A stretch of 5,261 nucleotides of DNA from Promethearchaeota archaeon. GTDB lineage: Archaea; Asgardarchaeota; Lokiarchaeia; Sigyniarchaeales; Promethearchaeaceae. The translations under genes were made by a program, and so were the position numbers. Every line of letters begins with the position of its first letter. The first letter of the stretch is position 1. Below, piece after piece: positions 1,166 to 5,261 of this stretch. Location: contig JAFGBS010000018.1 of NCBI GenBank assembly GCA_016933055.1, positions 1 to 5,261 on the forward strand, written 5' to 3'. Under the pieces are notes generated by a model, which saw nothing but the letters and a program-made list of their open reading frames with translations, ran no database searches and had not been told where the DNA came from.

Positions 1166-1173
1166 AGGGAGGT
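1166..1173 (+). promoter_or_regulatory. Shine-Dalgarno site for the CTG start at 1180
   Basis: AGGGAGGT; the GGAGGT core (1168-1173) is 6 nt upstream of an in-frame CTG at 1180. Confidence 0.75.
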
Positions 1174-1179
1174 TCAACA

Positions 1180-1944
1180 CTGAGTACAGATAATAAAACA
1201 AAAATAGTTCTGTTTTCTGGCGGCATAGCATCATTTGAGGTTGGAAGACTAGTGTTAGAAAAATATGGCAAAGAAAATGTTAAGTTTTGGTTTTTTGATA
1301 CATTGATTGAAGATGAAAGTCTATATCGATTTTTAGATCAATGTGAAGATTTTCTTGGAATTACTATTGAAAGATTCAGCGATGGTAGAAATTTTTGGGA
1401 AGTTTTCAGAGATGAAAGATTTATTGGAAATTCACGAGTACCCTTATGTAATAGAGTATTAAAACGTGAATTATTAGAAAAAAAATTAAAACATGAATTT
1501 CCATTTAATAATGTAATACTTTTTCTTGGTTACGAATATACTGAGACAGATAGAATGGAAAAGGCGAAATTCAAATGGAACGAAAAAGGTTATGATGTTT
1601 CCTTTCCATTGGCTAGTGCACCACATCAGGAAAAAGTAGATCTTATTAATAAATTACAAAAATATGGTTTAGAAATACCAAGATTATATGATTTGGGATT
1701 CAAACATAACAACTGTGGTGGCGCTTGTGTCCGTGCTGGAATTAATCAATGGCAATTGTTGTTAGAACTTTTTCCAGAAAGGTATTTATGGCACGAGAGG
1801 CAAGAACAAAAAATAAGGAATTACCTTAACAAAGATGTTGCTATACTTCGGGACCGAACTGGCGGTGTAACAAAACCATTAACTTTGCGCAAATTACGCC
1901 TTAGAACTAATGGAAAAAATTTTCTTGAAAGGGGCAAAAAATGA
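1180..1944 (+). CDS. PP-loop (adenine nucleotide alpha-hydrolase / PAPS-reductase-like) enzyme, about 254 aa, probable Fe-S-binding cysteines
   Basis: Extending the 1252 ORF upstream in frame gives (M)STDNKTKIVLFSGGIASFEVGRLVLEKYG, which contains the PP-loop SGGxxS at 1216-1233. Further motifs: FFDTLIEDESLYRFL, DGRNFWEVF, PLCNRVLKRE (Cys at 1447), LFLGYEYTE..R, PRLYDLGFKHNNCGGAC (Cys at 1714 and 1726) and AILRDR. I recall this pattern from a phage/mobile-element branch of PAPS-reductase-like proteins. Confidence 0.8.
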   Translation: MSTDNKTKIVLFSGGIASFEVGRLVLEKYGKENVKFWFFDTLIEDESLYRFLDQCEDFLGITIERFSDGRNFWEVFRDERFIGNSRVPLCNRVLKRELLEKKLKHEFPFNNVILFLGYEYTETDRMEKAKFKWNEKGYDVSFPLASAPHQEKVDLINKLQKYGLEIPRLYDLGFKHNNCGGACVRAGINQWQLLLELFPERYLWHERQEQKIRNYLNKDVAILRDRTGGVTKPLTLRKLRLRTNGKNFLERGKK

Positions 1945-2576
1945 GCGAAGATAATTCTTCAAATGATAAGTGGTTGGATGTTTTATATGGTAGGGTAAAT
2001 GATCAATTTGTACTGTCGAGAACTAGCCAACAGAACACCCATCATTGGGTTATTTCCTTAGCTTTGGCTTTGATTACTGCCGTATTAACTTTAGGTGGTA
2101 ATGAAGAGCCTTATCCAAGTGAATTTAATTTTGTTGCTATTCTTGTATCATTGCCCTTAATGTTTCGATTTTTTGTAAGATCTTGTCTAGAAACATCCAT
2201 CCAAAATCGATGGATGGTTATTCGCAATGCCCTTGATGAATATAATTACATAAAATCAAATAATTTGAACCAAATTTCTGAATATAAAAAATATCTGGAT
2301 GAAGTAATTTCTCTTTATTATTTCAGTTGGAAATCTCCAACGAAAATTGAAAAAATCATCTGGGATAATATTCGTTTAGCTTACTTTTGGCCATTTGTTG
2401 TAATAGTTATTCTTTTAACCTGGGGTTATATTGCGCTTCCAAATACAAAAATGATCTGCATTACTTCAATAATAGTTTCTAGCTTTATGGTTTATGAAAT
2501 TGTTTCATTTTTCAATTATAAAGGATTCAAGTATGAAAAACCAGAAACAAAAAAGCCGCACATAGATTTTGTTTGA
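1941..2576 (+). CDS. Integral membrane protein with about 4 predicted TM helices, possibly remotely DUF2270-like
   Basis: Hydrophobic stretches at about aa 36-52 (WVISLALALITAVLTLG), 63-80 (FNFVAILVSLPLMFRFFV), 147-166 (AYFWPFVVIVILLTWGYIAL) and 172-192 (MICITSIIVSSFMVYEIVSFF). The start overlaps the upstream stop (ATGA at 1941-1944). Confidence 0.75.
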   Translation: MSEDNSSNDKWLDVLYGRVNDQFVLSRTSQQNTHHWVISLALALITAVLTLGGNEEPYPSEFNFVAILVSLPLMFRFFVRSCLETSIQNRWMVIRNALDEYNYIKSNNLNQISEYKKYLDEVISLYYFSWKSPTKIEKIIWDNIRLAYFWPFVVIVILLTWGYIALPNTKMICITSIIVSSFMVYEIVSFFNYKGFKYEKPETKKPHIDFV

Positions 2577-2975: not shown

Positions 2976-3902
2976 ATGGAATATTGGTGGGTAAATCACA
3001 AACAGACATTTGATCAAGAACTAAATTTTGGTTATCTTTGGTCTCCAAAAACAAACAAAAATGGTTCAAGAAACCAGTTTTATGTTAATATGACAATTAT
3101 CCGTGAGGGGGATATAGTATTTTCCTATTCAGACGGAGTAATCAAGGCGATAGGGTTTATTACTGCAAGAGGAACCGAATCAACAAGACCAGATGAGTTT
3201 GGCGATATTGGAGAACAATGGAATAGAGAAGGGTGGATTGTAAGAGTAGATTGGCAATTACTTGAAAACCCATTTTCTCCTAAAGAATATATTGAAAGGA
3301 TTAGAAACCTTTTGCCTTCTAAATACTCCCCAATAAGAACTAATGGTGATGGAAATCAAGGATGTTATCTAGCTAGCATCAGCGATAATTTGGCTGAAGA
3401 ACTCTTATCTATTTCCGTGAACAAAGAATCAGTTCAAAATTTTGTGGAGGAGAAAAAAATCGAGAAAAAAGAAAATGATGAAATAGACAGGATTCGAACA
3501 TCAAACCTTCCAACAACTGAGAAGAAACAATTGATCACAGCTCGACGAGGACAAGGTGTCTTTCGAGAAAATTTGAAAAATGTAGAAAGCGAATGTAGAT
3601 TAACTCATGTTAATAATGAAAAACTCTTAATCGCAAGTCATATAAAACCATGGAGAGACTCAACCGATACCGAAAAGCTTGATGGAAACAATGGCCTATT
3701 GCTTTCTCCTCATATTGATAAATTATTTGATAGTGGTTACATCACTTTTACAAACGATGGCCATATACATAGAGCTTCGGAACAAGTTGATTTAGTTATG
3801 GAAAAATGGGGATTAGATCCCAAAATGAATATTGGTAAATTCACCTCAGATCAAGAAAGATATCTTGAGTACCACAGAAAGCACATTTTTACCGGCAATT
3901 AA
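2976..3902 (+). CDS. EVE/PUA-like reader + HNH endonuclease; putative modification-dependent (type IV) restriction enzyme, VcaM4I-like architecture
   Basis: N-terminal YWWVNHKQTF...GYLWSPKTNKNG...GDIVFSYSDGVIKAIG segment typical of EVE/PUA-HNH proteins. C-terminal HNH_2-type motifs ARRGQGVFR, CRLT, LIASHIKPW and NGLLLSPHIDKLFDSGYITF. GGAG at 2965-2968 lies 7 nt before the ATG. Confidence 0.85.
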   Translation: MEYWWVNHKQTFDQELNFGYLWSPKTNKNGSRNQFYVNMTIIREGDIVFSYSDGVIKAIGFITARGTESTRPDEFGDIGEQWNREGWIVRVDWQLLENPFSPKEYIERIRNLLPSKYSPIRTNGDGNQGCYLASISDNLAEELLSISVNKESVQNFVEEKKIEKKENDEIDRIRTSNLPTTEKKQLITARRGQGVFRENLKNVESECRLTHVNNEKLLIASHIKPWRDSTDTEKLDGNNGLLLSPHIDKLFDSGYITFTNDGHIHRASEQVDLVMEKWGLDPKMNIGKFTSDQERYLEYHRKHIFTGN

Positions 3903-3935: not shown

Positions 3936-4703
3936 ATGTACAAGGAGGAAATAATCCCAATTGCAATCGAAAATTCTAATAAATCTAACTCCCCATCAAT
4001 GGAAATTTTAGAAGAAGAAATATGTTTTGTAATTATGCCTTTTGCTGGTTGGTTTAATGATTACTATTCCTCAATTTATTGTCCTGCAATTGAAGCCGCA
4101 AGCATGACTCCCTTTCGAGCAGATAATCTGTACAGGCCTAGCACTATTGTTAATGATATTTGGTTATACACTCAAAAAGCGAAAATAATCCTTGCAGATT
4201 TATCCGGTAAAAATCCTAATGTTTTCTATGAACTCGGATTGGCTCACGGGCTTGCAAAACCTGCAATATTGATTACTAATTCTATGGAAGATGTCCCTTT
4301 TGATCTTCGAGCGTTGAGAGTTCTGTTGTATGATAAGAATGAACCTCGATGGGGTGATATTCTTCAGGATCAGATAACTAGAGTTATAAATGAAGTAAAA
4401 GAATCCCCACTTGAAGCTGTTTTACCTACATTCTTATCAGTTGATAGTGAATCAAACCAAAATACCATTTCTCCGAACGATAAAATTCTTTTGGAATTAC
4501 GAAATGATATAGATCTACTACGCTCTGAATTGGGCCGTAAGCGATCTATCAGATACAATTCATCTCAAATCACAGAATCTGAGGCGGAAATATTTATTGA
4601 TGATATGAAAAGTAATAATGTTCCAGAAAATATTATCGCAGAAAGATTATTCAATTTAGGCGTTCCATCCAATTGGATTATTAATAGATTAGGATCATCT
4701 TGA
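3936..4703 (+). CDS. Nucleoside 2-deoxyribosyltransferase (NDT)/N-glycosidase-like protein with a C-terminal coiled-coil and small helical tail
   Basis: Motifs CFVIMPF (4023), FRAD, IILADLSGKNPNVFYELGLAHG (Glu codon at 4230, in the position of the NDT-fold nucleophile), KPAILI and VPFDLRALR. A heptad-like segment DKILLELRNDIDLLRSEL follows. The exact start is uncertain (3936, ~3954 or 3999). Confidence 0.75.
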   Translation: MYKEEIIPIAIENSNKSNSPSMEILEEEICFVIMPFAGWFNDYYSSIYCPAIEAASMTPFRADNLYRPSTIVNDIWLYTQKAKIILADLSGKNPNVFYELGLAHGLAKPAILITNSMEDVPFDLRALRVLLYDKNEPRWGDILQDQITRVINEVKESPLEAVLPTFLSVDSESNQNTISPNDKILLELRNDIDLLRSELGRKRSIRYNSSQITESEAEIFIDDMKSNNVPENIIAERLFNLGVPSNWIINRLGSS

Positions 4704-4856
4704 TATTCATTGATAAAACTCAAAATATTGTGTGAAGGATTTTTATTATTAGCATATACTAAACGGAATTGCTTTTGTGAAACTATTGTGTAAATGAATC
4801 TTTTTGATCCTTACTTATTACAAACATTAGGAACATCAATACTAGAAGATTTATAA

Positions 4857-4889
4857 AGTTTGAAGCCCACCTTTGATAAGATGGGCTTC
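4857..4889. repeat. Palindromic 33-nt repeat, copy 1 (hairpin)
   Basis: agtttgaagcccacctttgataagatgggcttc; stem ttgaagccca (4860-4869) pairs with tgggcttcaa (4882-4891). 27/33 identical to copy 2. Confidence 0.85.
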
Positions 4890-4963
4890 AATAGGGCATT
4901 GTGTCAAAGCAAGCCAAAAATATTTTATCACAAATTTCCTTTTCTGATAAATTGAATTTTAAT

Positions 4964-4996
4964 AGTTTGAAGCCCGCCTTCGACAGGGCGGGCTTC
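4964..4996. repeat. Palindromic 33-nt repeat, copy 2 (hairpin)
   Basis: agtttgaagcccgccttcgacagggcgggcttc; stem gaagcccgcc (4969-4978) pairs with ggcgggcttc (4987-4996). Direct repeat of 4857-4889 at a 107-nt period. Confidence 0.85.
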
Positions 4997-5100
4997 CCAA
5001 AGCACCATTAACGAAACATATCCATTCTCTCCCGAATATTATATCATCAATTTAAGCATTCATTATTCTATTAATTACCATTCGAAATTTAATTTCCCCC

Positions 5101-5129
5101 TTGCAATTTATATTATATTTATATATAAT
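5101..5129 (+). promoter_or_regulatory. Sigma70-type promoter for the 5180 ORF
   Basis: TTGCAA (5101-5106), a 17-nt spacer, then TATAAT (5124-5129). The surrounding DNA is very AT-rich, which raises the chance-match rate. Confidence 0.6.
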
Positions 5130-5179
5130 ATCTTATAAATTAACAATTAAACACCGCCGCTCACACCACGGACAGCACC

Positions 5180-5261
5180 ATGCCCAAACGCACCAGAGGC
5201 GCGCAGCCAGGCAACACCAACGCCCTCAAACACGGCTTCTACTCACAGCAGTTCTCCCAGA
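5180..5261 (+). CDS. 5' end of a hypothetical protein with a terminase-small-subunit-like N-terminal motif (3'-truncated by the window; absent from the ORF track)
   Basis: ATG at 5180 reads MPKRTRGAQPGNTNALKHGFYSQQFSQ, open to the window end. GAxPGNxNAxKHGxY is a motif I recognise from N-termini of phage terminase small subunits and related small proteins. GC content rises sharply here (38/60 in 5161-5220). Confidence 0.65.
   Translation, partial: MPKRTRGAQPGNTNALKHGFYSQQFSQ

Follow-up and report, generated by a model that had tools for sequence, protein, structure and literature searches.

A PP-loop enzyme gene overlapping a four-helix membrane protein gene: a candidate two-gene immune module on a contig binned with a Promethearchaeota archaeon

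A 5,261-bp contig assigned to a Promethearchaeota archaeon (GenBank assembly GCA_016933055.1, contig JAFGBS010000018.1; the whole of it is hereafter called the window) carries two overlapping plus-strand genes. One encodes a PP-loop ATP pyrophosphatase with the fold of 3′-phosphoadenosine-5′-phosphosulfate (PAPS) reductase, and the other a small protein with four transmembrane (TM) helices (Table 1). Enzyme and membrane protein are a real unit, co-inherited far beyond chance pairing. As to function, we tentatively read them as a candidate two-gene immune module of the abortive-infection type—enzyme-controlled and pore-forming—and give this reading somewhat less than an even chance. The first-pass annotation of this DNA did not recognize the pair as a named system. 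In PADLOC 2.0 the membrane protein has no model, and the enzyme draws just a weak SspD match. A literature search returned no paper on the pair, which is also unmentioned in the surveys of BREX (bacteriophage exclusion) and Dnd systems (PMC10853773, PMC12839542, PMC12914056).

How closely are the two genes linked, and how far does the linkage extend? The stop codon of the enzyme gene and the start codon of the membrane gene share the nucleotides ATGA, an overlap noticed at the outset that we read as translational coupling. The gap between the genes in other paired loci ranges from −11 to +79 nt, with a Shine–Dalgarno sequence and an ATG in every case. Conserved adjacency, the first check proposed for the pair, was confirmed: the membrane gene lies adjacent, co-oriented, and directly 3′ of the enzyme gene in 14 distinct loci (L003, L085, L004, L005, L006, L008, L020, L083, L087, L089, L090, L109, the P0040/P0140 contig, and the window), all within one enzyme clade. 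A profile of the membrane protein matches directly 3′ of the enzyme in all loci of this clade and in none of 73 loci outside it. The hosts are Chloroflexota, Thermotogota, Bacteroidota, Latescibacterota, metagenomes, and the archaeal bin studied here. In a maximum-likelihood tree the paired enzymes form a single clade (support 98/92); one change suffices to explain the label "paired" on that tree, and none of 500 label shuffles equaled it. Because the order within the clade conflicts with taxonomy, the pattern points to horizontal spread of the cassette. The distribution is patchy, with about 14 paired loci recovered in the collections searched, and 100 relatives of this genome yielded no paired locus and a single weak, fused match resembling the TM protein. 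In an archaeon of the same order (L108, 1504–2490), a weak match to the TM family (E = 2e-6) forms the N-terminal part of a 328-aa protein whose C-terminal soluble domain looks, by eye, TIR-like or deoxyribosyltransferase-like. A complex prediction for enzyme and membrane protein scored 0.27 against a mark of 0.32, and we use it neither for nor against the pairing.

Is the enzyme gene complete? The frame at 1180–1944 translates as LSTDNKTKIVLFSGGIAS ... RVPLCNRVLKR ... HNNCGGACV and contains the SGGIAS, PLC..LKR, and HNNCGGAC motifs by which the enzyme was first recognized. The open reading frame listing begins the gene at GTG 1252, downstream of the SGG motif, because no ATG, GTG, or TTG occurs between the upstream in-frame stop (1150–1152) and that motif. 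A CTG located 12 codons ahead of SGG, with a Shine–Dalgarno sequence upstream, is common to the window (1180), L003 (10001; its enzyme is 78% identical to that of the window), and L083 (~7690). L087 and L090 have a TTG at a distance similar to that of the window CTG, L004 has a TTG further upstream, and more distant homologues start at ATG. Because the same or like starts recur in other loci, CTG 1180, the start already chosen in the first-pass annotation, is the best one; the gene is thus complete, with a weak start codon that is conserved. Gene callers miss or shorten the gene; in L001, which is the same contig as the window, no gene is called at its position. The suspicion that the enzyme might be shortened, raised by the absence of a C-terminal GGCGC motif, did not survive comparison with the wider family. 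This family is large (1235 matches in a word-seeded search) and falls into two groups, one with a C-terminal W-G-G-C-G-C tail and the other, the window clade, lacking it in 10 of 11 tree rows. Loss of the tail, which the window enzyme shares, is thus a trait of the TM-paired clade.

What chemistry might the enzyme perform? Pfam finds a single domain, PAPS_reduct (PF01507; 31.2 bits against a gathering cut-off of 22.5). Across 23 diverse homologues the PP-loop residues S13, G14, G15, and S18 are invariant, as are cysteines C90, C179, and C183 and several acidic and basic residues. DndC binds a 4Fe-4S center through three cysteines (PMC10853773), and by analogy the window enzyme probably has a three-cysteine [4Fe-4S] site. 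The weak match to the PADLOC SspD model (E = 3.1e-12, 44.8 bits, model span 3–201 of 277) comes from a model supplied with no curated cut-off. The folds closest to the AlphaFold2 (AF2) model of the enzyme (predicted local distance difference test [pLDDT] 90.5) are PAPS reductase (Z = 14.3) and adenosine-5′-phosphosulfate reductase (Z = 13.2), followed at Z of about 11 by [4Fe-4S] LarE, NcsA, and Cap9 (Cap9–CdnD, Z = 11.0). By sequence, the closest solved protein is "PptA" (Protein Data Bank [PDB] 21fy chain C; E = 1.4e-27, profile positions 6–218), an entry not listed in the Foldseek or VIA structure libraries; a literature search for a PAPS-reductase-like PptA found none. PptA shares the conserved Cys and the NNC..C motif but reads SCGAPS where the window enzyme has SGGIAS, and C-x-G-C in place of C-G-G-A-C.

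The four TM helices ascribed to the partner are borne out by hydrophobic segments at about residues 33–55, 61–83, 143–169, and 170–191 and by a confident helical AF2 model (pLDDT 92; five long helices). From the model we infer an N-in/C-in four-helix bundle that extends into a cytoplasmic helical stalk. The conserved motifs are NTHxW, PLxFRFFVRSC, and WDNxRLAYxWP, with W36, L73, R76, F77, F78, and W91 conserved at the cytoplasmic face; close relatives additionally conserve R18, R27, H34, R80, C82, R95, and D99. Among AlphaFold Database clusters, the best named match is the SLATT-named V4REF8 (E = 1.6e-4, TM score 0.71), with a second SLATT row at E = 0.24. Five DUF2270 clusters match with probability 1.00 and TM scores of 0.53–0.60 over ~200 residues, in comparisons that have predicted models on both sides. 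DUF2270 was recently named ThsF, a toxic membrane effector of type V Thoeris that is activated by 3′-cyclic ADP-ribose (3′cADPR) and whose predicted assembly is a ring in which neighboring protomers enclose basic ligand pockets (bioRxiv 10.64898/2025.12.03.692087). In an exhaustive profile search the membrane-protein family comprised 114 clusters; 20 of the 114 representatives matched DUF2270 at E ≤ 0.05 (best 2e-6), and five scanned singly scored 14–19 bits, below the Pfam cut-off of 25 bits. Pfam SLATT matched neither the window protein nor the family representatives. We place the family within an effector-type superfamily as a remote branch not yet filed; by score it does not belong to PF10028 itself. 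Against solved structures, Foldseek gave no match to the model at E < 0.001, and the top VIA match was a designed nanopore whose Z of 10.4 is below the meaningful level for helical bundles; an ESM Atlas shape search gave only TM scores < 0.4. The family was not found in IMG/VR viral contigs, GenBank phages (query P0159), or plasmids, nor was DUF2270 found in the 401 Bacilli genomes searched.

Members of this membrane family also occur with other partners. In a second cassette type, formed by more distant members and present on two independent contigs, a small class I S-adenosylmethionine (SAM) methyltransferase gene is translationally coupled to a TM-family gene (Table 1). On two short contigs the membrane gene occurs with no enzyme gene beside it, following an Mrr_cat gene on one and an SLT gene on the other, and some family members bear extra 8xMP or PEGA domains. 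Such swapping of partners (SAM methyltransferase, Mrr_cat) is typical of effector modules.

Does the pair keep company with defense genes? The proximity that was to be checked was found in part: defense-type neighbors occur in 5 of the 12 paired loci with usable flanks, the other seven being metabolic or of unknown kind. One of the five is the window, where the pair is indeed flanked by a BREX gene and a nuclease (a BrxL–SLFN fusion and an HNH nuclease), with a TIR-like gene beyond. On the P0040 contig, BrxC, a 783-aa protein, and BrxL lie directly upstream of the pair. A third locus has, 52 nt past the pair, a ThsB-like TIR gene and after it a type I restriction-modification (R-M) system; the fourth is an integrase island with SIR2_2, SLFN_AlbA_2, and 8xMP genes; and the fifth contains a DUF2726 zinc-ribbon gene. 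The pair thus stands directly behind brxL in two independent loci, whose enzymes are just 55% identical to each other. It may therefore serve BREX as an accessory and not be the free-standing system first proposed, or else BREX clusters may offer a landing site at their 3′ end. A further candidate for the true partner of the membrane protein was the TIR-like gene, which we rejected: only 2 of the 12 loci have a TIR-type gene close by, the two are mutually unrelated, and most loci lack one. The pair had further been described as low in guanine-plus-cytosine (GC) content. Its GC is 0.31–0.32 and the genome mean 0.35; a difference of just 0.03–0.04 does not make a low-GC island, and the outlier in the window is BrxL, at 0.43.

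Our preferred reading, an abortive-infection-type module, builds on the following evidence: the partner lies directly 3′ of the enzyme in all 14 loci of one well-supported clade whose branching departs from taxonomy; the TM model resembles SLATT and DUF2270 (ThsF) effectors, and its family swaps partners; and 5 of 12 loci have defense neighbors, with PP-loop enzymes already known in signaling immunity (Cap9–CdnD). Under such a mechanism the membrane protein would form a ring like the one predicted for ThsF and would stay closed. A basic–aromatic cytoplasmic patch (R76, F77, F78, W36, and W91, joined in the close clade by R18, R27, H34, R80, and R95) could serve as the docking or ligand site. 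On infection, the PP-loop enzyme, probably bearing its three-cysteine [4Fe-4S] site, would adenylate and possibly thiolate a nucleotide or nucleic-acid end. Its product, or the enzyme itself, would then open the channel, the membrane would depolarize, and the infected cell would die ahead of phage release. With a weak CTG or TTG as start codon and a strong Shine–Dalgarno sequence ahead of it, the enzyme would be held at a low level, and the module would be able to stand alone while also lodging at the 3′ end of BREX clusters. The trigger of the effector would be a small-molecule product, modified nucleic acid, or direct contact. We think unlikely a more specific version, in which infection prompts the enzyme to make a novel nucleotide messenger, adenylated or thiolated, that opens a ThsF-like channel.

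Co-inheritance and a SLATT/DUF2270-like fold thus agree with the enzyme-plus-TM-effector defense system proposed in the first-pass annotation, and several observations weigh against it. At the level of Pfam the window membrane protein has no DUF2270 or SLATT match at E ≤ 0.1, so that its link to these families runs through fold and weak intermediate matches. DUF2270 itself is present in the control genomes of D. radiodurans and H. volcanii and is not solely defensive. The seven other paired loci have as neighbors a NiFe hydrogenase operon, RtcB/archease, GNAT, aldehyde dehydrogenase, aminotransferase, DNA polymerase III, or genes of unknown kind. One relative of the membrane protein, P0150 (L093, 3126–6630), is translationally coupled to a 4Fe-4S ferredoxin gene through a 4-nt overlap with its stop, behind a molybdopterin oxidoreductase gene, where a membrane anchor subunit would usually be encoded. 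Finally, the wider enzyme family, found in mycobacteriophages, actinomycete elements, and Ssp-like loci, points to DNA-directed chemistry on mobile elements and suggests DNA modification. Its tailed group is common in mycobacteriophages, whose records, like those of actinomycete elements, annotate the "phage PAPS reductase" family generically or inconsistently. The same group also occurs on Streptomyces plasmids and in actinomycete integrative elements, adjoining prim-pol, integrase, and FtsK-like genes. In Bacilli, a tailed PP-loop gene lies downstream of genes for an ATPase of 1167 aa that resembles SspC (E = 1e-117) and a tandem double PP-loop protein of 513 aa.

The main rival takes up this last point. 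In it, the pair is a membrane-tethered nucleic-acid modification enzyme, a minimal writer of the SspD/DndC/BrxP type acting on a phosphate or base of DNA or RNA by adenylation and sulfur insertion, with the four-TM protein as a mere membrane anchor, for example at DNA entry; behind brxL it would be a BREX modification accessory. The SspD match (E of 3e-12), the three invariant cysteines, which recall the 4Fe-4S center of DndC (PMC10853773), and the two brxL-adjacent loci all fit, as does the use of a PAPS-reductase-domain protein in type 4 BREX phosphorothioation (PMC12914056). So do the relatives: those in Bacilli that adjoin the SspC-like ATPase, those fused to AAA_25 or DUF3987 helicase modules of actinomycete elements, and those common in mycobacteriophages. 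However, most paired loci have no adjacent SspB/DUF4007, SspC/BrxC/DndD, DndE, or cysteine desulfurase gene, the paired clade has lost the Cys-Gly-Cys tail that nearly all relatives keep, the partner fold is effector-like and not that of a simple anchor, and a search of the genome found no PglZ. We consider this alternative fairly unlikely. Two observations concern the relatives themselves. The Bacilli loci with SspC-like and PP-loop genes (L027, 4279–7779; L032, 8323–9861; also L015, L021, L059, and L068) have the appearance of an unusual Ssp-like cluster. The fusions P0248, P0249, and P0250 (638–789 aa; Nonomuraea, Streptosporangium) join the family PP-loop domain to AAA_25 (RepA-like) or DUF3987/YfjI helicase modules.

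Could the pair instead serve ordinary metabolism? A housekeeping membrane Fe-S or sulfur-transfer enzyme, acting in cofactor, tRNA, or lipid thiolation or in redox, with the four-TM protein as anchor or electron conduit, would suit the metabolic neighbors seen in several loci, the ferredoxin overlap of P0150 at an anchor-subunit position behind molybdopterin oxidoreductase, and an Anaerolineae locus (L097, 7052–10609) in which the pair comes, on the same strand, 24 nt after the genes for the small and large NiFe hydrogenase subunits. Yet we find such a role quite improbable given how patchily the pair is distributed (about 14 paired loci, and among 100 relatives of this genome only the weak fused match), the conflict of its tree with taxonomy, and neighbors that differ at each locus; moreover, the TM protein has a single invariant histidine and no evident haem-b site. 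A selfish, toxin–antitoxin-like pair, in which the enzyme restrains a membrane toxin and the cassette persists by addiction with no defense role, would explain the tight coupling, small size, horizontal spread, variable contexts, and pore-like partner fold. The catalytic set of the enzyme is fully conserved, however, which a mere antitoxin would not need, and we judge this alternative very improbable; toxin–antitoxin pairs and abortive-infection systems overlap in practice and are hard to separate, so this alternative borders on the immune module that we prefer.

Which established systems does the pair most resemble? Type V Thoeris (ThsB TIR plus ThsF/DUF2270) likewise joins an enzyme to a small multihelix membrane protein in two genes, and ThsF is the DUF2270 fold match described above, with basic pockets in its predicted ring where the window protein has an Arg/Trp patch. 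The conserved partner here, however, is a PP-loop ATP pyrophosphatase and not a TIR NADase, TIR-type genes being near the pair in only 2 of the 12 loci, and ThsF is predicted to have three TM helices against four in the window protein, which has no DUF2270 match at E ≤ 0.1; the five family representatives scanned singly score below the Pfam cut-off. SspD, BrxP, and DndC share with the enzyme the PAPS-reductase fold, the PP-loop, three conserved cysteines, the weak SspD profile match, and, in two loci, brxL adjacency. Here, by contrast, there is no DUF4007/SspB, mostly no SspC/BrxC/DndD, and no extra Cys-rich domain, with a membrane partner instead. SspA, SspB, and SspC are absent from the window and do not adjoin the pair in the loci inspected, an SspC-like protein occurring only by the non-paired Bacilli relatives; DndD and DndE are likewise in neither the window nor the paired loci inspected. 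In BrxP the PAPS-reductase domain is joined to DUF4007 by fusion or linkage and accompanied by a further alpha+beta and Cys-rich region (PMC12839542, PMC12914056). The window enzyme, at 254 aa with a lone PAPS_reduct domain, has a different architecture and is much smaller than BrxP or DndC. Of the type 4 cluster brxP-brxC-brxZ-brxL, brxL lies upstream of the pair here, the contig starting inside it, and also, together with BrxC, on the P0040 contig. The cyclic-oligonucleotide-based antiphage signaling system (CBASS) and Pycsar, with SLATT or other TM effectors, resemble the pair in combining a nucleotide-handling enzyme with a membrane effector, and the membrane protein has its SLATT-named fold match; they differ in that the window has no CD-NTase (cGAS/DncV-like nucleotidyltransferase) or cyclase domain and any SLATT membership is suggested by fold, not by sequence. 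Cap9 and QatC, from type IV CBASS and Qat, are PP-loop enzymes within immune systems, and Cap9–CdnD is among the fold matches; they belong to the QueC branch whereas the window enzyme is of the PAPS reductase kind, Cap9 has a protein partner as the substrate of its modification, and neither TGT nor OGG partners are found here.

The window (C26) holds five plus-strand genes and belongs to a bin of 3.76 Mb in 36 contigs with a GC content of 0.35 and an archaeal small-subunit ribosomal RNA. The nearest homologues are bacterial, from Delongbacteria (83% identity) and Anaerolineaceae (78%), and the contig is only 5.3 kb long within an archaeal bin; because of this, we regard the cassette as either a recent import or part of a mis-binned contig, with an uncertain host. 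Paralogues of the TIR-like gene on contigs C13 (35% identity) and C29 (44%, adjoining another AlbA_2-like stretch) tie the contig to the bin to some degree. In the truncated first gene, a complete AlbA_2 domain takes the place of the usual Lon-like C-terminal domain of BrxL; a search of the genome found no further part of brxL. The full-length match of the HNH nuclease is an entry that we take to be VcaM4I, an EVE-HNH modification-dependent restriction enzyme; the N-terminal 155 aa of the window nuclease have no Pfam match. The last ~560 bases (4704–5261) contain no recognizable gene and have a sharply negative GC skew. Scans of the window found no tRNA and no Rfam match, and a promoter and terminator scan was uninformative.

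Table 1. Positions of the features discussed; coordinates are those of the window unless a locus is named
Feature	Position	Strand	Basis or remark
BrxL ATPase C-part fused to Schlafen SLFN_AlbA_2, cut by contig start	1..1074	+	Domain and PADLOC scans
Shine–Dalgarno-like GGGAGG, 6 nt upstream of enzyme CTG start	1166..1174	+	Sequence; same layout with CTG in L003 and L083
PP-loop ATP pyrophosphatase, PAPS-reductase fold, 254 aa, CTG start	1180..1944	+	Pfam, PADLOC, alignment, AF2 model
ATGA stop/start overlap of enzyme and membrane genes	1941..1944	+	Sequence
Four-TM membrane protein, 211 aa, DUF2270/SLATT-like fold	1941..2576	+	Alignments, AF2, AlphaFold Database cluster matches
HNH nuclease	2976..3902	+	Full-length match to PDB 6yex "HNH endonuclease" (E = 6e-84, residues 1–305); Pfam HNH_2
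TIR-like/nucleoside-deoxyribosyltransferase-like protein	3936..4703	+	PADLOC TIR effector model, E = 4.4e-10
SAM methyltransferase plus TM-family cassettes	L094, 351–2143; L103/L104, 4264–5624		L103 adjoins a type III R-M system (ResIII + N6_N4_Mtase)

What would these genes mean for immunity and for the enzyme family? Were the pair to turn out as a modification enzyme tethered to the membrane, no smaller SspD-like system would be known, and BREX would gain a new accessory. If the pair defends, it would link pore effectors of the ThsF/SLATT kind to a new chemical type of sensor or signal enzyme, a PP-loop protein that is probably an Fe-S enzyme; the methyltransferase pairing would mark the module as open to more than one kind of enzyme, and the large "phage PAPS reductase" family would gain a first function for one of its clades. 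If, in addition, the messenger version were true, PP-loop enzymes would form a further class beside the CD-NTases of CBASS, the cyclases of Pycsar, and the TIR proteins of Thoeris, with the small SAM methyltransferase and the same effector as a sister version.

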